Below, one piece after another: positions 31,204 to 61,375 of a DNA stretch of 64,000 nt. The position numbers and the translations under genes were made by a program. Source of the stretch: Candidatus Saccharimonadales bacterium (lineage in GTDB: Bacteria; Patescibacteriota; Saccharimonadia; Saccharimonadales; SZUA-47). The stretch is from positions 957 through 64,956 of the forward strand of contig JBBQVE010000008.1 of assembly GCA_038211855.1 (NCBI GenBank), given 5' to 3'. Under the pieces are notes generated by a model. The model ran no database searches and had not been told where the DNA came from. It worked only from the letters and a program-made list of their open reading frames with translations. The stretch's first letter is position 1, and every line of letters begins with the position of its first letter.

Positions 31204-31569
31204 ATGAAGATTCCTAAACACTTTTTTCATGACCGTGCGGTACTCGCTTTCGTGGGAATCAACACTGTACTGACGCTGTTCTCGCTCATGTACATATTTT
31301 TTGGTGTCTTGCAGAGCGTCAATACAACACAAATTATTCAACACCGTGATATTTTCTCGGCTCGGGCCAGCGCTGATACGAGCGGCTCGATTAACGAGTT
31401 CCGTTACTACGCACTTTTCATATTTTTGCAGTATGTCTTTGGCCTGTTGCTCAGCATTCGTGTGTACGTGCACCGGCGGGTTCTCTCTGTTGCGATCTTG
31501 GCTGGCGTGAGCTATCTAACGATTCTCGCCATAATTGTCGTTAACTTACTGCACCTGCAACGAGGCTAA
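31204..31569 (+). CDS. Hypothetical membrane protein
   Basis: 121 aa with 3-4 TMs. Tightly packed between the neighbouring genes. Confidence 0.5.
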   Translation: MKIPKHFFHDRAVLAFVGINTVLTLFSLMYIFFGVLQSVNTTQIIQHRDIFSARASADTSGSINEFRYYALFIFLQYVFGLLLSIRVYVHRRVLSVAILAGVSYLTILAIIVVNLLHLQRG

Positions 31570-34423: not shown

Positions 34424-34496
34424 GTCAACATAGTGTCATACTGGAAGAGAAAATGCTAGTGGATAAACTCCCTAAAACCAGGGTATAACTGCTAGA

Positions 34497-34922
34497 ATGA
34501 TAGATATGAGCGATGTAGCTGACTGTCCATTCTGCAATCTAAAAGAGAGAGTCCTACTGCAAAACGATCTGGCAGTAGCTTTTTTGAGTGATCCGCGTAA
34601 AGTGAAAGGCCACATGCTGGTGACATCGAAGCGGCACATCGAAAAGCCTTGGGAGGTCACATCAGAAGAGTTACAGGCCGTATATGGCTTGATTAACGAC
34701 ATTGAGCAACGTTTAGAAGGTAAACTCGGTGTCGGCTTCGATATTCGCCAAAATTATCGCCCGTTTCTTGAAGAAACTCGCCTGACAGTCCGCCACATTC
34801 ATTTCCATGTGATCCCACGCAGTAAATACGATCATATATATGAAGTAGCCGAACATTTTGATACGGTGTTATTCGAGAAATTAACAGATCAGGAACGCGA
34901 AGAAGTCACGAAACTTTTCTAA
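34497..34922 (+). CDS. HIT-family nucleotide hydrolase/transferase
   Basis: 141 aa with histidine triad HIHFHVIPR and an N-terminal CPFC. Confidence 0.85.
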   Translation: MIDMSDVADCPFCNLKERVLLQNDLAVAFLSDPRKVKGHMLVTSKRHIEKPWEVTSEELQAVYGLINDIEQRLEGKLGVGFDIRQNYRPFLEETRLTVRHIHFHVIPRSKYDHIYEVAEHFDTVLFEKLTDQEREEVTKLF

Positions 34923-38295: not shown

Positions 38296-38484
38296 AGGTA
38301 ACAGGGATGAAGTATAGCTGATTCAGGGGTGATTTTCAAGATAGCTTGAATATATACCGCATATGATATAAAAAACCAAGCGCTAGCAGGATAATCATAG
38401 TGGAAAAGTGGCTGTGTAAATGTGTACAAAATTACGTCAATTATCGACTAGCATTAAACCGCTAGCATGATGTATACTAAGCGA

Positions 38485-38555
38485 GGTTGGGTTTTGAAAG
38501 GTGTTTCACCTTTAGCCGGTCGTCCTTATTTGCGAGAAAGGATGACCGGCTTTTA
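38485..38555 (+). ncRNA. Candidate ~70-nt transcript: two hairpins ending in a terminator-like stem plus U-tract
   Basis: TATACT (38473..38478) lies upstream. 7-bp hairpin 38497..38513. 14-bp hairpin 38514..38551 followed by TTTT-ACG-TTT. No credible ORF. Confidence 0.25.
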
Positions 38556-38589
38556 CGTTTAGCCGGACGTGACAAAACAACAGAGGCGG

Positions 38590-38786
38590 TGTATCATATA
38601 ACAGAGTAAAGACGCGGCCTCACCACCCGTACCAGCTCCGCCACTACTGGTAAGCACAGGCGTAAAAAGGAACTTGCACGAGTTAAAGACTTTGGTGGAA
38701 CCGTCCGGATCCAAACATCCAGACCCAAGGCGCTTACGACTGATAATGTACGACACGTACGTTGCCAATCGTTAGCGCCTTTTTAT
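38590..38786 (+). promoter_or_regulatory. T-box riboswitch leader (Thr-type) controlling the NUDIX-thrS operon
   Basis: Antiterminator: helix A1 CUUUGG (38690..95) / CCAAGG (38725..30), 7-nt bulge UGGAACC (38696..38702), helix A2 GUCCGGA / UCCAGAC. The competing terminator 38727..38781 (AAGGCGCUUACG / CGUUAGCGCCUU) is followed by a U-tract to 38785. Conserved-looking AGAGUA lies at 38603. TATCAT -10 lies at 38592. Confidence 0.7.
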
Positions 38787-38809
38787 ATGTAAAGCCGCGG
38801 AGGCAAAAA

Positions 38810-39232
38810 ATGAGTGAATATGAAACCAATATGGTCGTCGTCGCTTTCTTAGTTCGAGGTGGTAAAATTTTCATTGCCAAACGCGCCAAGACCAAAATGT
38901 TCTTTCCTGATCGCTACGAACTTGTCGGTGGTCATGTTGATATGGGCGAGCAGCCCGAAGAAGCATTGCAGCGCGAACTCCGCGAAGAGATCAACCTCGA
39001 AGTTACAGTCGGCAATCCAGTTGGTGCTTTTACTTTTGAACAGAATGGCGAGTTCAAAATAGAAATAGCCTACTTCTGCTATCCAATAGACGGGACCGAG
39101 CCGACACTGAACCCTGACGATCACAGCGAGTCGCGCTGGATCGGCCAGGGCGAACTAGACAAATTCGAGAAGGAAGATGAAGAAACTGAGCTGTTACGAA
39201 AAGCATTCAAACTACTAGAAGGAGAAAAATAA
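38810..39232 (+). CDS. NUDIX hydrolase
   Basis: Track ORF from 38762. ATG 38810 is preferred (SD ggagg 8 nt upstream). Nudix box GGHVDMGEQPEEALQRELREEINL. Its stop overlaps the thrS ATG (taATG). Confidence 0.8.
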   Translation: MSEYETNMVVVAFLVRGGKIFIAKRAKTKMFFPDRYELVGGHVDMGEQPEEALQRELREEINLEVTVGNPVGAFTFEQNGEFKIEIAYFCYPIDGTEPTLNPDDHSESRWIGQGELDKFEKEDEETELLRKAFKLLEGEK

Positions 39233-49821: not shown

Positions 49822-51339
49822 TTATAGTAACAGGCTTTTTGGTCGATATTGCAAAGCTTCGCCGATATGGGCGGTGGTGATGACTTTGCTTTGTTCTAAG
49901 TCGGCAATCGTACGAGCGATTTTGATGGTTTTGAGATAGACGCGTGCCGACAGCTGTAATTTAGCGGCGGCGGTGTTCAGTAGGGCTTCGGCGGTTGTCT
50001 CGAGCTGCGCTAATGCTTTGATTTGGCGCGTAGAAGCTGAAGCATTCAATGTCTCATTATTTTTGTAGCGGACGGCCTGAGCGGCTCGTACGCGTTCCAC
50101 GACCGAACGCAAACGAGTACTGTCAGTCTGAGCTGTGTTGTTTTTGAGTAAACCGTCATGTTCGACCGCATCGACCGTCAGATGAATATCGATACGGTCT
50201 TGGATTGGGCCTGAAATCTTTTTGTTGTAGTGCTGGATTTGTGCAGCCGTGCAGGTGCATTCATGTGAGCTACCCAGGTAACCACAGGGACATGGGTTGC
50301 GAGTTGCGACCAGCATGAACTTGGCAGGGAATTCCACTGTTTCTCGGGCGCGGGCGACGCTGATGATGCCATCTTCGAGCGGCTGACGGAGTGCTTCAAT
50401 CGTAGAACGGCGAAACTCCGGTAGCTCGTCCAAAAACAACACGCCGCCATTGGCCATGGTAATTTCGCCCGGCTTTGGATTGCCGCCGCCGCCAATAATC
50501 GCCATGTCACTGGCACTGTGATGGGGTGACCGAAAAGGCCGTTTGTAGATAACACCAAGTGGTTCTTTGGTACCGAGACTGTGCAAATGGGTGATTTGTA
50601 GGGCCTCCTCACGAGAGAGGCCTGGCAGTAGTCCGGGCAGTGTGCGCGCCAACATGCTCTTGCCCATGCCCGGCGGCCCGCTAAACAAGATATTATGTCC
50701 ACCTGCTGCAGCAATCAATATCGCTCGTTTGGCTCGCTCTTGGCCGACGACCTCGGCAATGTCGACTTCAACCCGCTCTTGTTGGGCCGGCGCTTCATAC
50801 CAGCCGGCATCAGTTTCGATGAGATCTAGTGGATCTGCGCCCGTAAAATGCAGGTAAAGTTGCTTGAGCGAAGTAATTGGTAACACGGTGAGTTTTGGCA
50901 CAAGTCGGGACTGCGACAAGTTTCCTTCCGGGACGACCATTACTGTCATGCCAGCTTTACGGGCAGCCAATAGTTTGCCAACGATGCCGCGGATTGGATG
51001 CACAGTACCATCAAGGCCAAGTTCACCAAAAAACGCTGTTTCGGCAGGACAAGTAATGGCTTTAGTTGCCTTCAGAAGAGCAGCGGCAATCGCCACGTCG
51101 AAACTACTGCCAAGTTTCTGTAGATCAGCCGGTGCTAGGTTGATTGTCACGCGCTTTTTTGGAAATTGCAGATCAGAGCTACTAAACGCCGCCCGCAGAC
51201 GTTCTCTTGATTCGTCGACGGATTTGTTGGTCATACCGACAACGGTGACGTTCGGTAACCCGTTCGTTATGTGACATTCTATGTCGATTAGCAGCCCTTC
51301 GCCACCGACAATCTGCACAGAGTGTGTCTTAGAGCTCAT
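49822..51339 (-). CDS. comM: ComM/YifB Mg-chelatase-like AAA+ protein
   Basis: 505 aa. N-terminal Lon-like domain, Walker A GPPGMGKSMLA, LFLDELPEF, and a Cys cluster CPCGYLGS..HECTC. Confidence 0.88.
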   Translation of the reverse strand: MSSKTHSVQIVGGEGLLIDIECHITNGLPNVTVVGMTNKSVDESRERLRAAFSSSDLQFPKKRVTINLAPADLQKLGSSFDVAIAAALLKATKAITCPAETAFFGELGLDGTVHPIRGIVGKLLAARKAGMTVMVVPEGNLSQSRLVPKLTVLPITSLKQLYLHFTGADPLDLIETDAGWYEAPAQQERVEVDIAEVVGQERAKRAILIAAAGGHNILFSGPPGMGKSMLARTLPGLLPGLSREEALQITHLHSLGTKEPLGVIYKRPFRSPHHSASDMAIIGGGGNPKPGEITMANGGVLFLDELPEFRRSTIEALRQPLEDGIISVARARETVEFPAKFMLVATRNPCPCGYLGSSHECTCTAAQIQHYNKKISGPIQDRIDIHLTVDAVEHDGLLKNNTAQTDSTRLRSVVERVRAAQAVRYKNNETLNASASTRQIKALAQLETTAEALLNTAAAKLQLSARVYLKTIKIARTIADLEQSKVITTAHIGEALQYRPKSLLL

Positions 51340-51419
51340 GCCGTTGCCCAGCCTTCAGGAAAGAAGGGCCAGCAGCAGGGCACGATTAATTTGATTTTTG
51401 GGCGCTTACTAAGACTCAT
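51336..51419 (-). CDS. Small upstream ORF (27 aa; 40 aa if started at 51458) translationally coupled to comM
   Basis: GGGAG (51431..51427) lies 7 nt before ATG 51419. Its stop TGA 51338..51336 overlaps the comM ATG 51339..51337 (ATGA). comM has no SD of its own and its frame closes 6 codons upstream. Peptide MSLSKRPKIKLIVPCCWPFFPEGWATA. Confidence 0.4.
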   Translation of the reverse strand: MSLSKRPKIKLIVPCCWPFFPEGWATA

Positions 51420-51735
51420 ATGAGTACTCCCTAAATTAGATTTGATTGTGTAGAACATACCGCCTTTTGCAGTAGGTGATCGCATCATTACACATGGACT
51501 TTGGCTACTGCAAGCACAAGCGTTTCAAGGAGTGAGAAAAATTACAGGGAAAGTAAAAGGCCCCAGCCTTTTTATTAGATGGAGCCCCTTACTTTTGTAG
51601 TTTTTTTGTCTTGTATTTTAGGTTTTTGCCTGACGCACCCGACCATTTGTTTGAATGGAACAACGGCTTGCGAGAAGCCGTTGTTACAGATGCGTTTTTA
51701 TTTTTGAGCACTTTTTTTATTCAAGTGCTATGCAT

Positions 51736-51764
51736 ATCCTACAAAGCATTAGCGCTGAAGTCAA
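51736..51764 (-). promoter_or_regulatory. Candidate promoter for the sORF-comM transcript
   Basis: Read on the minus strand: TTGACT (51764..51759), 17-nt spacer, TAGGAT (51741..51736). It would give a ~300-nt structured 5' UTR. Confidence 0.35.
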
Positions 51765-52350
51765 CAACAATTTTTAAGATTTTCTACCCACCAGGCAACT
51801 TTTCTACATCGAACGTTTTACATACTGCAAGATCCTATCTGATAAAACATTAGAAAAACCTGAATTGGTACGATACGGCTGGTGAAAAATTCCTCCAAAA
51901 AAAGTATTTTTTGTTTGTCAAAAACTGCAGACGAGCCATAAAACTTGAACTACTTTGTATTGATAGGCACGCATTGGCCACCATCACACCCACTTCCAGC
52001 GACCGCGGCACTCACTGCAAGCGTTTCCAATGATTCTTCCATGAATGTACAGAAAAACCGCACACAGCGGTCATGATTGTTGCAACGCAACAGCTGAGGC
52101 CTCCTTAGGAGAAATCATAAAATCGCTCCAATAGTGGCGAGCCTTGCTGCTGCTTGCGACGAGCCAAGTCTCCAGGAGGGGGCTTTGCGATACCCGTTTG
52201 CAGTAAGTAGGGCAACAAGCAGCATGCTTACTATATGTATGCAGTTTTTAAGCGAAATAGGGGTACTTCACATATAGTTACTGATGTTAAAAAAGCAACT
52301 TTATATATTATTAAATTATAGATCTGTAACTCCTTAATACAGTGTTGGTA
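51765..52350. other. ORF-free segment containing a ~190-nt element closed by a long-range helix
   Basis: No ORF of 60 aa or more. ACTGCAAGCG (52014..52023) pairs with CGTTTGCAGT (52195..52204). Nested helices at 52030..52040/52108..52118, 52058..52070 and 52079..52091. Strand and function unknown. Confidence 0.3.
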
Positions 52351-52575
52351 TGCTATTTATTACAACGTAAATTTGCATAAATAAGTATTGCTATTTTTAA
52401 ATATGTATGCTAATAATAGTGGAGTCAGGAAAAAACATAAAAACAATAAATATATCGTTCTTCTCGGCCTTAAAGCCCCGAAGAGCGGTCAGTCACACCA
52501 GCGGGAAGCAACTGCCTAATAGTTAATTTATAGCGGCGGATTTGCTTCCCCTGGTTCCTAGAATCTCCTTTGTAG
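52351..52575 (+). promoter_or_regulatory. AT-rich triple extended -10 region plus structured leader upstream of the ATPase operon
   Basis: TGCTATTTAT (52351), TGCTATTTTT (52389) and TGCTAATAAT (52408) resemble the TGCTATACT promoters seen elsewhere in the window. Hairpins at 52460..52485 and 52503..52550 (9-bp GGGAAGCAA/TTGCTTCCC base). Confidence 0.35.
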
Positions 52576-52611
52576 AAATTGTGCCTAGGGTATGGGCACA
52601 ATTTTTATTTT
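52576..52611 (+). terminator. Intrinsic terminator 12 nt before the start codon of the next gene
   Basis: 10-bp stem aaattgtgcc / ggcacaattt, 8-nt loop, then TT-A-TTTTT. ATG at 52623. Confidence 0.55.
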
Positions 52612-52622
52612 TGTGAGAAGAT

Positions 52623-52970
52623 ATGATAAGAGTTATGAATAGAAAACGTCTCACCATCTTTGTTATCAGTCTGTTGGTCTTCTTGGTGTTCATCCTGACA
52701 ACTTCACCGTATCGTTTGCCACTTATCCTTATAGTCGTACCTGGAGCCGCTTTTATTATTGCCGTTCACAGCATCTTGTCGCTGTCTGCGGATAAGGTAC
52801 CTATCCAGCCAAAAGCTGCCCGCAGCCTCGTTACTGTCCTGACGATCATCTTATCGGTGCTTGCTGTCTTACTCTCGGTCGGGCAGCTGACCTTCCGTGA
52901 TTTTGCGTTATTGCTAGCACTGGCATTATTCGGCATGTTTTATTTGTCGCGTATGGGAGATAAAGGATGA
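52623..52970 (+). CDS. Small 4-TM membrane protein
   Basis: 115 aa with four hydrophobic helices. No SMR or CrcB signature seen. Confidence 0.55.
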   Translation: MIRVMNRKRLTIFVISLLVFLVFILTTSPYRLPLILIVVPGAAFIIAVHSILSLSADKVPIQPKAARSLVTVLTIILSVLAVLLSVGQLTFRDFALLLALALFGMFYLSRMGDKG

Positions 52971-53019
52971 TGCAAAAAAGCGACAAGTCTTTCTACTTTT
53001 AAGCAGTTACTTTATACTT

Positions 53020-53436
53020 ATGACTATGGAACCGCAGGAAACGAAGTCAGAAAATTTTGAACTGCCGCACCCGTCAGGTGGGGCTACACCAGAGATGGGG
53101 ACTGGCTCGCCGGAGCATGGGGCAGCACCGGAACAACACAGTGCGCCAGGGGCCGGCGATCCGGCTGGCACGGCAACGGCTGCAATGACTGCCGCACCCG
53201 ATCCGCTCACGGTGCTCGGCAGTACGACGCCATCGACGCACACTATCTCTGGTCACGCTGCTGGACTCACAGCTGAGGATGCCGATCTTATTGAAAAAAC
53301 GTGGGTAGAGAAAGCCAAGCAAATCGTAGCGCAGACACACGGCGACCCCTATACGCAGAACAATGAAATCAATAAGGTGAAGGCCGATTACATCAAAAAA
53401 AGGTACAATAAAGATATTAAGCTCGCAAGTGAATAA
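53020..53436 (+). CDS. Hypothetical protein with a disordered P/A/G-rich N-terminus and a helical C-terminus
   Basis: 138 aa with C-terminal DADLIEKTWVEKAKQIVAQTHGDPYTQNNEINKVKADYIKKRY. Confidence 0.5.
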   Translation: MTMEPQETKSENFELPHPSGGATPEMGTGSPEHGAAPEQHSAPGAGDPAGTATAAMTAAPDPLTVLGSTTPSTHTISGHAAGLTAEDADLIEKTWVEKAKQIVAQTHGDPYTQNNEINKVKADYIKKRYNKDIKLASE

Positions 53437-53476
53437 GGCCGGAAAAGAGCGCAGCTCTAAGGTGTAAAATAAGACT

Positions 53477-56400
53477 ATGCCCACGTTACTCATCATACTT
53501 ATGGTTATCGTCCTCGTACTTTGTATCGGGGGGTTCATTGCGTTCCTCCACGTGCGCAAACTGTGGCGCGAGCAGAAGAACTTTGAGCGCGGCCTCAAGA
53601 TGGTGCCGCTGCTTATTCACTTGCCACCGCAGAGTGATGACACCGAAATCGGCCAGCGCGACGCTCGTGACGTTATGGACGAAACAATCAGTAAAGCGCA
53701 GGTGCTGTATAACATTATCGCTAGCACCGTGCAGAAGGGCTTTAAGACTAAGTTTTATGGCCAACGACACTTCGCTTTTGAAATCGTCGGTGCCAAAGGC
53801 TTCGTCCACTTTTATGCCGCTGTACCAGTCGCTTTAGTTGATGTTGTGACGCAGGCTGTGGTGAGTGCATACCCAACCGCACGACTTGAAGAAGTCGCTG
53901 AGCATAACATTTTTAGTCCGGTCGGAAAGATAACGGCGACGATTGGCGGCGAGCTGGTTCTGAAAGAGAACTTTGCGTACCCAATTGCCACCTACCAAGT
54001 GATCAAGCGTGACACCATGCAATCGATTCTGAACGCCCTCTCAACACTCGAAAAAGAGGACGGCGCTGGCATCCAGATTCTGATGCGTCCGGCCGATGCC
54101 TCGTGGCGCAAACACGCGCTTTCGGTTGCCATGAAGAAGCGCAAAGGCAAAGATAAAAAGAAGGGCGCCTCGGCCTTTGGCGGCTACTTGCGCCAGATTA
54201 TCTATGCTATCTCCAAACCTCCAGAAGACAAAGGGAAGGGTGACGAGCATTCGCTTTCTGGCGTCGATCAATCAATGGTTGATTCGATCGAGGAGAAGAC
54301 CAAGTATCCAGGGTATGAGGTGCTGATCCGCGTCGTGGCGTCTTCTAATATCAGTCAGCGTGCCCAGGCAGTTTTGAGTAACATCGTCGCTACTTTTGCT
54401 TTGTTTGACGCCCCTGGCAGTAACGGCTTCAAGTACACCAGCGCCAAAGATATTGATTCTTTTGTGACAGCTTACATCATGCGTTTCTTCCCGCCAGAGC
54501 AGACTAAAACGATTTTGAACGCCGTCGAACTTGCGACGCTGTTCCACTTTCCGGATCAGAGTGGTGTGCCAACCAGCCAGCTCGAACGCCAAGCTTCCAA
54601 GCAAGTCGATGGACCGCGCAACGTCCCTGACGAAGGCTTACTGCTCGGCTACAACGTTTTCCGTGGCGCCAAGAAGGCCATCCGTTTGGCACAGAATGAT
54701 CGTGCTCGTCACATGTACGTGGTGGGGCAGACTGGTACTGGTAAATCGACCTTTCTTGAGAACTTAGCGCTGCAGGATATGCTGGCTGGCGAAGGCTTTG
54801 CCTTTATTGATCCGCACGGCGACACGGCTGAAAAACTACTCAGTATGGTGCCAAAGGAACGCACCGAGGACGTAATCTATTTCTGCCCGGCAGATATGGA
54901 CTATCCGATCGGCCTTAATCTGTTTGAGTTCCACTCCCCTGAACAAAAAGACTTCCTGATTCAGGAAGCCATCAACATGCTGTATAAACTTTATGACCCG
55001 CAGCACCAAGGTATTATTGGGCCACGCTACGAGCACTGGTTCCGTAATGCCGCGCTCACCATCATGGCTGATCCAGAAGGCGCCACATTTATCGATATTC
55101 CAAAGGTCTTTACCGACGCCAAATATGCAAAACAGAAGCTGGAATTCGTCACCGACCAGACCGTGCAGGATTTTTGGAACAAAGAAATGGCCTCCACCAG
55201 CGATTATCACAAAAGTGAAGTGTTAGGGTGGTTCGTCAGTAAGTTTGGTGCCTTCTTGAGTAACGAAATGATGCGCAATATCATTGGCCAGACCAAAAGC
55301 TCATTTGACCTGCGTGAAATCATGGATCAGAAGAAAATCCTGCTGGTGAACCTTTCTAAGGGCCGTACCGGCGAACTAAACAGCAAGCTGCTTGGTATGA
55401 TCTTCGTCATGAAATTCCAGGCGGCTGCCATGAGTCGCGCCAGTATTCCGGAAAGCGAACGTGTCGACTTCTGTCTGTACGTTGATGAGTTTCAGAACTT
55501 TAGTACTGACAGCTTCGCGACCATCATGTCCGAAGCCAGAAAGTATCACCTCAACTTGATTGTGGCCAACCAGTTTACGACCCAGTTGAGCGAAGAAATC
55601 CGCGATGCAGTCTTTGGAAACATGGGTACGATTGTGGCCTTCCGTATCGGTCAGAACGATGTTGATTCTTTGACCAAATACTTCCAGCCACTGTTTGATG
55701 GTGACGACCTGCTTCGTGTGCCTAACTATAATGCTGTTGTCCGTACGTTGATTGGCGGCGTCCCAACTCAGCCGTTCAGCATGACTGGCTTGCCGCCACT
55801 TGGGACGCCGAACAAGGGCTTGGGCGATGCGCTCAAACAGCTTTCTGCCGCTAAGTATGGCCGTCCAAAGTCAGTTGTCGAAAGTGAGATTTTTGAACGT
55901 TTGGCAACCAAGGATGATAATCCTGCTGCCGGCCCCACGCAACCGCCACGTGCCGGCAGTATGCCGTCAGCTGCTGCGCCACCAGCGCCAAAGCAACCTG
56001 CCAACTTCTTGGATGATTGGTTGAATAAAAAGCAGACGAACAGCTTCAAGGCGCCAAGCTCACCGTTCAAGCAGCCAGCCACGCCCGCCGGAGCACCAGC
56101 CCCGATCGTAGCAGCCCCTGTCGCGGCCCCACGGCCTCTTCAGCCAGCTCCACAAGCACAAGCGGTTCAGATGCCTGCTGCCGATGATTTGCCCGTCTTA
56201 GAGCCTTATGTGCCGCCAGCCGCCGCCGTTGCCGCCGCCACGCCACCAATGCCACAGGCAGTCAGTTCTTCGACGCAGCCGACACAAGGCACTACGACCT
56301 CTATTCCGGCACCAGACCTTACTGTCGATGACATTGTCGATCACCCGTATCAAGAGCCTTTGGCGCCGAAGCTTACTTCACCCGATGAAGGCGTGCTCCT

Positions 56401-57175: not shown

Positions 57176-59217
57176 GCGATGCCTCCTGTTGGTGCGTATT
57201 CGACTTTAATTAGTTCAAGTTCGCGGGCCAGCAGGCGACTGCGGGCAAAGAAGTAGCCGACAATCATGGTGACGGCAAAGCCGAAGACCACACTGGTGCC
57301 AGGACCGGTGTTCGGCAGGGCAGTCGTGACGGTTTCGATACATTTAGAGCCGCCACAAGGCAAGTTAACGGTGACAGTTGTCCCATAGACGTTTACCATC
57401 TTTAAATCGTACGTACCGGCGTCAGAAGATGACACAGGCGTACCGGGGATGACATCTTTGACCTTGACTGTGATGTGATTTTCAATTGTCTCGCCAGCTT
57501 TGATAGTAGCCGCTGGCCACGAAACGACCTTTGTCTGCTCGTTGATCTTACCCCCATGAAGGTCAACTACATCGGAATAATCAAGAATATCAATGATAGA
57601 TTCATCAACGACAAAGTCTTTCTGGGTCAATTTGTTCGAAACATTTGTCGTGATAAGGGTGTATTCGAGCGTATCACCGGCTTTAGCGGTCTTGCCGTCA
57701 AAGTTCGTATCTTTTTGGGTTGGATTCGCGACTTTCTTTTGCTTCACGATTTTGGCAACGCACGACTTATCATCTGATTGCACGAGTGGGTTCTCGAGAC
57801 ACGGCTTACATTTTGGGTTATCCAGAAAGATCGTTTTATCAGAGGTACAAGGCACGGGCTCAGGAGTAATCTTGATAGCTTTCTGACAGGCAGTGGCAGT
57901 CTTCTGACCAAGAGAAGTCTCGGCGTAAAGGATGGTCGTATAGCTGCCGTCTTTTGCGTAGGTGTGCGTGATGTCATCGGTCGTCTTGAAGTTAGTGAGC
58001 TTACCATTGTTATCGCCAAAGTCCATATTGTAACTATTTATTGTGGCGCCATATTGGCCGGTGGCTCTGGCCGTGAAATGCACCACAGTTTTAACCTGAT
58101 AGGTGTCACTGGAAGTTTGTAAAAGGTCGCAAGAGGCGATTGGTTCTTTGCAATCACCACTCGTTGCGGGCAGATTGGTTTTGCCGGCAACCGTACATAG
58201 TGGCGTTGGAGCGGGTGTTGGGGTTGGAGCTGGCGTAGGTGCTGGGGTTGGCGTTGGGGTGACAACAGGTTTTGGACAGTTAAAGTTAACTGAGCGGCCA
58301 CTGCCGCCTGTGAGCAGGGCATAGTTGCTGCCACGGTCGGTCACATAGACCCATACCTGATGGGCGTGGCCATCATCTCGGAGTGGCCCGCCGTTCCAAA
58401 CATACCCCACCTCCGCAGGAATTCCGAGAGAAGCTTGGACGTCTGGTCGTGTCTGATTGGCCTGCACTTCGAAATAATCTTTATTAGCGACCGCACCGGA
58501 GAAGGCCGGCTTATCAACATAAATATGCACAAAGCGTTGGTTGCCATTGTTGTAGGCCCAACCGTAGATGATGTTACAGTCAGATCCATCAACAAAGCCC
58601 GATGGTTGAGGGGCTGGCGTCGGTGTTGGTTCGTTAAGATCAATGACCGGGTTCCCACAAGCCAGAATGATCATTTTGATCTTGCCGCATGTTTCGCGTG
58701 GACAAAACAGTACCGGTACAAGGTTGAGCCCTGGGAAAGTTGAGGTAAAGTCGTGCTGGAAGATAGGTGCGTTATATTCGCTGCTGGTAATCATGACGCT
58801 GGTTTCTCCAGCGCTGTTATTAGCACCACGTCCAGCCGTTAACAGATGGCGTTTACCGTCGCGGGCATCCTGGGCTTTATCGACATTCGTCATCTGCATC
58901 TTGGTAGCAATATCGTCACGGCTGATGCCAAAGTGCGTGTAGACAGACTGTACAAAGGGGCTTTCATCGTATTTTGCTAAGACGCCTTCACGGCTCGCTG
59001 CAAAACTGCCTTGAATAATGTTGCGATCCGAAGAAGCGAGGGTTGGCTGAGGTGGCGCAATCACAGCGATCATCTGGATCACCATCGCAAAAGCAACAAA
59101 GGCAAAGCCCAAGCGACGTAGGGTTGACTCCTGTTTGGCGCGTTTGGCATAAAAAGACACCTGACCGATCAAACTAGGGTTGAAGGGCAGGTTGGATATG
59201 AGTTTTCTGAAGTTCAT
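57172..59217 (-). CDS. LPXTG-anchored surface protein with PKD-like and DUF11/CARDB-like domains
   Basis: 681 aa. N-terminal TM/signal. PT-rich linker. PKD-like YNMDFGDNNG...THTYAKDGSYT. C-terminal LPNTGPG followed by a hydrophobic helix and RSR. Confidence 0.75.
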   Translation of the reverse strand: MNFRKLISNLPFNPSLIGQVSFYAKRAKQESTLRRLGFAFVAFAMVIQMIAVIAPPQPTLASSDRNIIQGSFAASREGVLAKYDESPFVQSVYTHFGISRDDIATKMQMTNVDKAQDARDGKRHLLTAGRGANNSAGETSVMITSSEYNAPIFQHDFTSTFPGLNLVPVLFCPRETCGKIKMIILACGNPVIDLNEPTPTPAPQPSGFVDGSDCNIIYGWAYNNGNQRFVHIYVDKPAFSGAVANKDYFEVQANQTRPDVQASLGIPAEVGYVWNGGPLRDDGHAHQVWVYVTDRGSNYALLTGGSGRSVNFNCPKPVVTPTPTPAPTPAPTPTPAPTPLCTVAGKTNLPATSGDCKEPIASCDLLQTSSDTYQVKTVVHFTARATGQYGATINSYNMDFGDNNGKLTNFKTTDDITHTYAKDGSYTTILYAETSLGQKTATACQKAIKITPEPVPCTSDKTIFLDNPKCKPCLENPLVQSDDKSCVAKIVKQKKVANPTQKDTNFDGKTAKAGDTLEYTLITTNVSNKLTQKDFVVDESIIDILDYSDVVDLHGGKINEQTKVVSWPAATIKAGETIENHITVKVKDVIPGTPVSSSDAGTYDLKMVNVYGTTVTVNLPCGGSKCIETVTTALPNTGPGTSVVFGFAVTMIVGYFFARSRLLARELELIKVEYAPTGGIA
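58200..58265 (-). repeat. Low-complexity Pro/Thr/Ala linker-coding tract inside the LPXTG gene
   Basis: Iterated ggNgtt/ggNgct units on the plus strand, encoding PTPTPAPTPAPTPTPAPTP. Confidence 0.6.
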
Positions 59218-59296
59218 TTTCCCCCTCGATACGTTTAGACTACTTAACTGTACTTATGGTTATTTAACCACGCTTTTGCTTATTCTCGCAACAGCG

Positions 59297-61375
<2,079 letters not shown>

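Follow-up and report, generated by a model that had tools for sequence, protein, structure and literature searches.

An inverted-repeat cluster between two conserved non-coding units in the comM–DUF8128/TraG-like spacer of a Saccharimonadales genome: a tentative reading as protein-binding sites

The DNA analysed here is a 64,000-nucleotide (nt) window of contig JBBQVE010000008.1 from a Candidatus Saccharimonadales bacterium, a Saccharibacteria-like genome of the candidate phyla radiation (CPR) with ∼49% G+C, whose ComM (YifB) is closest, among named homologues, to proteins of metagenome-assembled genomes assigned to Candidatus Saccharimonadales and Paceibacterota. Within this window a gene-free spacer of 1,283 nt (51340–52622) houses all arm copies of the inverted-repeat cluster that is the subject of this study. 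The spacer separates two divergent units: on its left, on the minus strand, lie comM (49822–51339), a 111-aa open reading frame (ORF), infC, rpmI and rplT, and on its right, on the plus strand, a 115-aa membrane ORF (from 52623), a 138-aa ORF and the gene of a 1001-aa DUF8128/TraG-like ATPase. A promoter scan of the spacer found only two strong promoters, those of two conserved non-coding units that we call Block A (comM side) and Block B (DUF8128/TraG side). An assembly artefact is ruled out, since Logan contig L056, an independent assembly from the same sample, matches the window over 51701–53538 without a mismatch or break; this shows the sequence to be real and leaves no stretch of at least 31 nt in the segment that recurs in that metagenome. 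The features discussed below are collected in Table 1.

Table 1. Positions of the arms, motif copies and other features of the spacer, numbered on the 64,000-nt window
Feature	Position	Strand	Sequence or remarks
Micro-ORF, 27 codons	51336–51419	−	MSLSKRPKIKLIVPCCWPFFPEGWATA; stop TGA overlaps the comM ATG (ATGA); AGGGAG Shine-Dalgarno sequence
Arm X1	51466–51477	−	TTTGCAGTAGGT; minus-strand reading ACCTACTGCAAA, a perfect ACNTACTGCAAR
Arm Y1	51507–51527	+	ACTGCAAGCacaaGCGTTTC; reads ACTGCAAGC-acaa-GCGTTTC
Block A, conserved non-coding unit	about 51541–51776	−	Conserved in L014–L018, L022, L057 and L059
Extra motif copy	51820–51831	+	ACATACTGCAAG; precedes the −35 element of Block A by ∼60 nt
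Lineage-specific segment	51893–52275		No detectable homology to L057; extent similar to that of the nested inverted-repeat domain (outer arms 51920/52249)
Outer inverted repeat, left arm	51920–51932	+	AAAAACTGCAGAC (ACTGCA core); from the inverted-repeat search
Y2/X2-closed domain, 199 nt	52010–52208	+	z-score −4.0 to −5.6
Arm Y2	52014–52027		ACTGCAAGCGTTTC
Arm X2	52197–52208		TTTGCAGTAAGT
Outer inverted repeat, right arm	52237–52249	−	GTATGCAGTTTTT; from the inverted-repeat search
Block B: promoter, structured leader or small RNA of ∼190 nt, terminator	52388–52612 (aligned from ∼52354)	+	Core 52450–52561

The arms of the cluster are copies of one 12-mer, ACNTACTGCAAR, with the core 8-mer TACTGCAA. 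Perfect copies stand in X1 (minus strand), at 51820–51831 (plus) and in X2 (minus), a copy with one mismatch lies at 52010–52021 (plus) and a looser one at 51503–51514 (plus). All coordinates that the initial annotation had given for the four arms X1, Y1, Y2 and X2, and for the helices that they form or enclose, proved correct when checked on the sequence. Three core copies were absent from it, namely the one at 51820–51831 and the two arms of a 13-nt inverted repeat (92% complementary) that surrounds the Y2/X2 domain and is paired in folds of 400 and 600 nt. The spacer thereby contains seven ACTGCA cores, in both orientations, between 51468 and 52240 and around its two strong promoters. The 8-mer TACTGCAA is the only one in the 64-kb window to reach at least four copies within any 800 bp, and five of the nine window copies of ACTGCAAR fall in 51466–52204; with up to one mismatch allowed, ACNTACTGCAAR occurs nine times in the window against 2.2 expected, a number reached by none of 100 shuffles. 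Successive sites are spaced by 40, 317, 99, 91, 184 and 42 bp, and the two pairs are of opposite polarity, with the motif tails pointing outward in X1–Y1 and the motif heads pointing outward in Y2–X2. Single perfect or near-perfect copies are also found elsewhere in the window, at 31425 (31425–31436, perfect), 34552 and 28950. The copy at 34552 belongs to a further convergent pair (34369–34380/34552–34563, TTTGCAGTCGGG ... TCCTACTGCAAA) with 171 nt between its arms, which flanks a short divergent intergenic region (34424–34496), both copies lying within the 5′ ends of the adjoining ORFs.

The X1/Y1 pair is located in the minus-strand comM leader and forms the local hairpin (9–10 bp) described in the initial annotation; taken alone, this hairpin is no stabler than shuffled sequence (z-scores −0.2 and −0.7). 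The near relative L014, whose ComM is 80% identical and whose contig covers the left 345 nt of the spacer, differs from the window at 2 of 34 arm positions and at 12 of 29 loop positions. All 17 arm bases compared in Y1 are identical, X1 carries one A-to-G change that preserves a U.G pair on the minus strand, and both arm substitutions are wobble-compatible, preserving the pairing on the minus strand only. On that strand Y1 contributes the −35-like hexamer TTGCAG of a weak promoter-like sequence beside comM (TTGCAG-18-AATGAT), whose −10 region is enclosed by X1 and Y1; the extended −10-like sequence between the arms (TGn-AATkAT) is retained in L014. Together with the 27-codon micro-ORF the X1/Y1 stretch forms an insertion found only in the window and L014. 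Between these two the micro-ORF shows six synonymous third-position changes and a single replacement, on which grounds it is probably translated and would be a real, uncalled micro-protein; it is not present in relatives more distant than L014.

The second pair encloses a much more stable structure. Y2/X2 is a 14-nt inverted repeat (52010–52023/52195–52208, 86% complementary) with 171 nt between its arms, and the initial proposal that it closes a multi-helix element is borne out by the predicted fold, in which it forms the closing helix P1. On the plus strand the domain folds at −80.2 kcal/mol (z-score −4.0), which none of 200 shuffles equalled; the minus strand gives a z-score of −1.8 and is less stable by 7.5 kcal/mol. 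In a scan of 638 windows of 200 nt over the whole 64 kb, the plus-strand window at 52010 ranked sixth (z-score −5.65), behind Block B, RNase P and three others, and z-scores below −4 were reached by ∼2% of all windows. Besides P1, the helices of the minimum-free-energy (MFE) fold are a CCGC hairpin (52058–52070), a 21-bp helix (52077–52100/52141–52162) and a 10-bp hairpin (52163–52188); the overall shape is a four-way, multi-branch junction with four inner helices, and the centroid fold differs little from the MFE fold. The 21-bp helix and the 52163–52188 hairpin keep pair probabilities of ∼1.0 in contexts of 200, 400 and 600 nt, and P1 has at least 0.9 in the two shorter contexts and 0.6 in the longest. 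Three nested helices had been proposed for the interior, ATGATTCTTCC/GGAGAAATCAT (52030–52040/52108–52118; nine Watson-Crick pairs, one G.U and one mismatch), CCGC-acaca-GCGG (52058–52070) and GTTGC-aac-GCAAC (52079–52091). All three are present in the sequence, but the MFE fold retains only CCGC-acaca-GCGG, the other two being supplanted by the 21-bp helix and the 10-bp hairpin. The domain has 48% G+C within a spacer of 32–40%, and its predicted fold contains seven G.U pairs against two A.C mismatches, an excess that mildly favours the plus strand as the one that would be folded.

Signals for expression of this domain are weak. It lies outside both conserved transcription units, neither strand carries a promoter matching at least 9 of 12 positions, and no terminator passed the scan; by eye, a weak promoter-like sequence (TTGTCA-16-CATAAA, 51915–51942) and a weak terminator-like one (GCATGC..GTATGC-AGTTTTT, 52224–52250) can be made out. 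Both conserved promoters fire away from the domain, which would thus need its own weak promoter. Among all relatives compared the domain has no homologue, and hence no compensatory changes to show; it is lineage-specific, an evolutionary orphan. Rfam 15 covariance models run over 50500–53500 gave no match to the domain at E ≤1 and none at gathering score, with two chance-level hits elsewhere in the spacer; the families covered include 6S RNA, group II intron domains, HEARO and riboswitches.

Contigs gathered through homologues of ComM (63–80% identity) and of the 115-aa ORF yielded nine related spacers; a synteny-based scan of a genome collection returned only relatives of at most 44% identity with a different gene order. 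All nine spacers retain a large gene-free gap of 0.9–1.6 kb, and their alignment falls into three zones, Block A, a core and Block B. The core, in which the Y2/X2 domain sits, persists at 300–900 nt in all nine and is unalignable among all lineages, even between the close pair L018 and L022; in L015 it contains a HAD hydrolase gene. The turnover can be followed most closely in L057 (93% match to Block A): its homology to the window is strong as far as 51780, patchy to ∼51892, at random level over 51893–52275 (identity 0.3–0.45) and resumes at 52279, the nearest well-aligned flanks (51841–51892 and 52279–52318) having an identity of 0.6–0.95. At the same core position (198–391 of its contig) L057 carries a 194-nt near-perfect foldback with 14-nt terminal arms 166 nt apart, an inner 24-nt hairpin (88% complementary) and a z-score of −5.6 on both strands, which has no sequence similarity to the domain of the window. 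Neither a structured window nor a G+C-rich inverted repeat occurs in the cores of the other relatives. A description of the cluster as unique and unconserved, which the initial annotation had set against its own proposals, thus applies to Y2/X2 and not to X1/Y1, which is conserved in L014.

Our favoured reading, to which we give a probability of roughly 0.35, is that the arms form an array of recognition sites for one sequence-specific DNA-binding protein. The 12-nt DNA motif would serve as the site of this single putative protein, scattered in both orientations across the regulatory spacer between the comM-infC-rpmI-rplT and DUF8128/TraG-like units. X1 and Y1, standing around the weak comM-proximal −10, would represent a classic operator layout, and the remaining copies stand 60–200 bp upstream of the two conserved promoters. 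The pairing of opposed copies would then be a by-product of their orientation, and the stable Y2–X2 fold would be lineage-specific filler DNA in the hypervariable core, not a conserved RNA gene. The likeness to known operator arrays lies in a 12-nt motif of which ∼800 bp around two divergent sigma-70-type promoters hold 5–7 copies in both orientations, in one inverted pair placed around a −10-like element, and in arms that are conserved in L014 above the level of the interval between them. The opposite polarity of the pairs fits independent sites and not copies of one bounded element, and the single copies elsewhere in the window are as expected of a regulon motif.

Several points weigh against such an array. 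No clear phasing is apparent in the spacings between sites, and the motif is not found in the spacers of L015–L018, L022 and L059, so that any regulation would be lineage-specific; both are departures from known operator arrays. Conservation of the X1/Y1 arms would be accounted for equally well by an RNA hairpin in the comM leader. The strong Y2–X2 fold (z-score −4 to −5.6, with a 21-bp helix free of the motif and a plus-strand G.U excess) is left unexplained. The regulator and its binding to the motif remain putative, and what would be regulated is likewise something that we infer from the position of the sites.

Alternatively, the region ∼51893–52275 may consist of one or two nested insertions bounded by inverted repeats in a recombination-prone core, that is, a foldback or a relic resembling miniature inverted-repeat transposable elements (MITEs), with the ACTGCA-containing arms as terminal inverted repeats of one family and the fold as the self-complementarity of the element. 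We regard this as possible, though on the unlikely side. It would suit the loss of homology to L057, which roughly matches the nested inverted-repeat domain, the unrelated foldback that L057 has in the same place, a core that cannot be aligned between any relatives and holds a hydrolase gene in one of them, the absence of a promoter from the domain, the confinement of the arm sequence within the spacer to two lineage-specific stretches, and the terminal repeats themselves (14 nt, 86% and 13 nt, 92% complementary). However, no target-site duplication is present at either inverted repeat (flanks gcggc/ACTC...AAGT/agggc and ttgtc/AAAAAC...GTTTTT/aagcg), the domain has no second copy within the 64-kb window (∼6% of the genome if this is assumed to be ∼1 Mb), and the unbroken L056 assembly leaves no repeat of at least 31 nt in that sample. 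Furthermore, no transposase or recombinase was found among the neighbouring genes examined, the domain folds into a branched structure favouring one strand instead of a plain hairpin, the X1/Y1 arms are under constraint, and X1–Y1 and Y2–X2, being opposite in polarity, cannot both copy one element bounded by terminal inverted repeats. Of the MITE-like relics suggested initially, what stands is thus the lineage-specific, nested arrangement and its counterpart in L057; the missing duplications and copies and the polarity speak against them. The suggestion of a repeated RNA module finds no support: the pairs differ in strand, transcriptional context and polarity, and have only the 12-nt arm in common.

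A lineage-specific orphan small RNA (sRNA) encoded on the plus strand at 52010–52208, or possibly ∼51948–52250, in which the arm motif recurs in the terminal helix by coincidence, is in our view unlikely. The fold statistics of the plus strand, the agreement of centroid and MFE folds, helix probabilities close to 1 across contexts, the strand preference in both energy and G.U pairs, the raised G+C and the promoter-like and terminator-like sequences seen by eye all favour it; against it are the failure of any promoter or terminator to pass the scan, the absence of Rfam matches and of homologues (which leaves covariation not assessable), the lack of kinship with Block B, the want of a structured window at this place in relatives save for the strand-symmetric foldback of L057, and the share of windows with equally low z-scores. 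A similarly unlikely explanation is that repeats and fold are functionless, produced by neutral drift, coincidence or template-switch ‘quasipalindrome’ mutation. Such an origin is consistent with the complete turnover of the core between all relatives, with an X1/Y1 hairpin no stabler than shuffles and with the fact that the cluster of seven ACTGCA 6-mers is equalled by several other 6-mers, but it sits poorly with the uniqueness of the 8-mer cluster in the window, with a 12-mer excess that no shuffle reached, with arms conserved while their loop diverged, and with a fold in the top 1–2% of windows; CPR genomes are compact, yet a core of 300–900 nt has been kept in all nine related spacers. 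A conserved RNA gene is a less likely identity for the cluster than sites of protein binding or foldback DNA. A combination, in which Y2/X2 is a recently born lineage-specific sRNA that took its closing helix from the 12-nt operator, and protein and RNA jointly couple comM-infC-rpmI-rplT to the DUF8128/TraG-like secretion unit, seems improbable to us; if true, the hypervariable core would be a nursery in which elements arise and get replaced, as the foldback of L057 suggests.

Comparison with known systems is instructive for each of these readings. Like the MITEs and foldbacks of the Correia/NEMIS, RUP, BOX and ERIC types, the region is ∼200–330 bp long, non-coding, intergenic, self-complementary and lineage-variable, with terminal inverted repeats of 13–14 nt; unlike them, it lacks a target-site duplication, a partner transposase and a consistent polarity, is not dispersed in further copies over the visible 64 kb, and has a branched, strand-biased fold. 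X1–Y1 resembles a REP doublet or REPIN in its two short inverted motif copies with a variable loop, but REPINs are dispersed in tens to hundreds of copies and accompanied by a RAYT transposase gene, whereas the copies clustered here all lie in one spacer. As in invertons of the fimS type, a promoter, here that of Block A, would be enclosed by inverted repeats (one of X1 and Y1 with one of Y2 and X2), but there is no recombinase gene nearby and no alternative junction in independent assemblies; an inverton was rejected because L013 and L056 are collinear through X1/Y1 and Y2/X2, respectively, and no recombinase is found among the neighbours, although minor variants are possible. Structured sRNAs such as 6S RNA, retron msr-msd and Rfam families share with the domain a length of ∼200 nt, a closing helix of 10–14 bp and a stable multi-helix interior, and differ from it in that the domain forms a four-way junction, has no Rfam match at E ≤1 and lacks a reverse-transcriptase gene, promoter, terminator and homologues. 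A 6S RNA was rejected on the predicted multi-branch junction, which is not a rod with a central bubble, and a retron on downstream genes that lack a reverse transcriptase in spite of the inverted repeat.

Further identities were considered and discarded. A riboswitch or cis-acting leader is incompatible with the position of Y2/X2, since the promoter of the downstream operon (52388–52417) lies 3′ of the element and that of Block A fires away from it. A paralogue of Block B was rejected when model R1, run with filters off, matched Block B only. A HAD-hydrolase pseudogene was dismissed after a tblastn search of the spacer with the L015 HAD protein found nothing (E 4.4). A small-protein gene was discounted, since none of 10 spacer ORFs is present in a collection of 15 billion proteins and tblastx between spacer cores gave nothing for the window; a 46-aa minus-strand ORF preceded by AAGGAGG had one marginal match (E 5e-5) to a Cys-rich repeat protein. 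A replication origin is contradicted by the lack of a DnaA-box cluster and of a GC-skew turn, and a phage, plasmid or viral origin by the lack of blastn matches in phage or plasmid collections and of exact 20-mers in viral contigs. For a DNA uptake sequence the motif density (four perfect copies per 64 kb) is far too low, and for a sigma-54 promoter TTGCA is present and the GG at −24 is missing.

The two blocks that frame the core behave very differently from it. Block A lies between Y1 and Y2, inside the coordinates of the cluster as initially described, and upstream of comM-orf-infC-rpmI-rplT. Its promoter is TTGACT-17-TAGGAT in the window (51764–51736) and TTGAC(A/T)-17-TAGGAT, invariant, across relatives; it is followed by the hairpins AGCACTT..AAGTGCT and AACAACGGCTT-CTCGC-AAGCCGTTGTT, the second with compensatory changes, and the unit also includes A-rich tracts and an intrinsic terminator hairpin (51550–51595). 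Nucleotide identity in Block A is 82–93% where the ComM protein is only 63–71% identical, and compensatory change is seen at 10 of 35 pairs. Block A matches no Rfam 15 family, either in the window or in relatives. One may speculate that it is an autoregulatory leader of the ribosomal-protein or IF3 type. Logan contigs L013, L014, L056 and L057, from three samples, start or end at 51684 and 51701 inside Block A, and these recurrent breaks probably reflect stretches of at least 31 nt common to co-occurring species, which split the assembly graph. In five relatives a perfect DnaA box, TGTGGATAA, stands ∼60 nt upstream of a conserved GCTTTGTAGGAT that ends at the Block A −10 (L015 4716, L016 4663, L017 4706, L018 4728 and L022 3229); in the window the box (∼51803) is degenerate, TGTAGAAAA, and L057 has TGTGGAAAA.

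Block B immediately precedes the 115-aa ORF and the DUF8128/TraG-like operon. It has a conserved promoter (TTGCTA-18-AATAAT, 52388–52417), a two-domain structure and an intrinsic terminator (52572–52608), and it occurs also in L015–L018, L022 and L057–L060. Among the 638 windows of 200 nt scanned over the 64 kb it is the most stable (z-score −8.5, rank 1). Compensatory changes affect 13 of 38 pairs in an alignment of ten sequences, and 94.5% of cells are paired, compared with ∼40% when the partners are slid; the observed level of covariation was not reached by any shuffle. Block B contains an invariant GAGCGGTCAGTCA and an AATAGT..TTATA loop, and no Rfam 15 family matches in the window or in relatives. 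Block B is a candidate for a new riboswitch-like leader or sRNA, and both blocks have good support as candidate new cis-regulatory or small RNAs of Saccharibacteria.

Two further places in the window deserve mention. A second gene-free stretch of ∼500 nt (38300–38810) beside tRNA-Val reaches z-scores of −5.0 (plus strand, at 38410) and −6.6 (minus strand, at 38610) and contains terminator-like hairpins, with no Rfam match at gathering score. Immediately 5′ of gyrB (start 59402), the plus strand at 59210–59409 has an unusually good fold (z-score −5.5).

On its own the inverted-repeat cluster would at best add a single orphan to a poorly studied phylum, be it an operator set, a foldback element or an sRNA, and the Y2/X2 element is an orphan of modest interest. 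Of greater use is the map of the spacer, in which two deeply conserved non-coding units that belong to no Rfam family, and are candidates for previously undescribed leader RNAs, enclose a core that is replaced from lineage to lineage. Saccharibacteria-like CPR genomes are compact and, to our knowledge, almost no regulatory RNAs have been described in them. Should the 12-mer prove to be a true operator, it would rank among the first cis-regulatory motifs proposed for this group.

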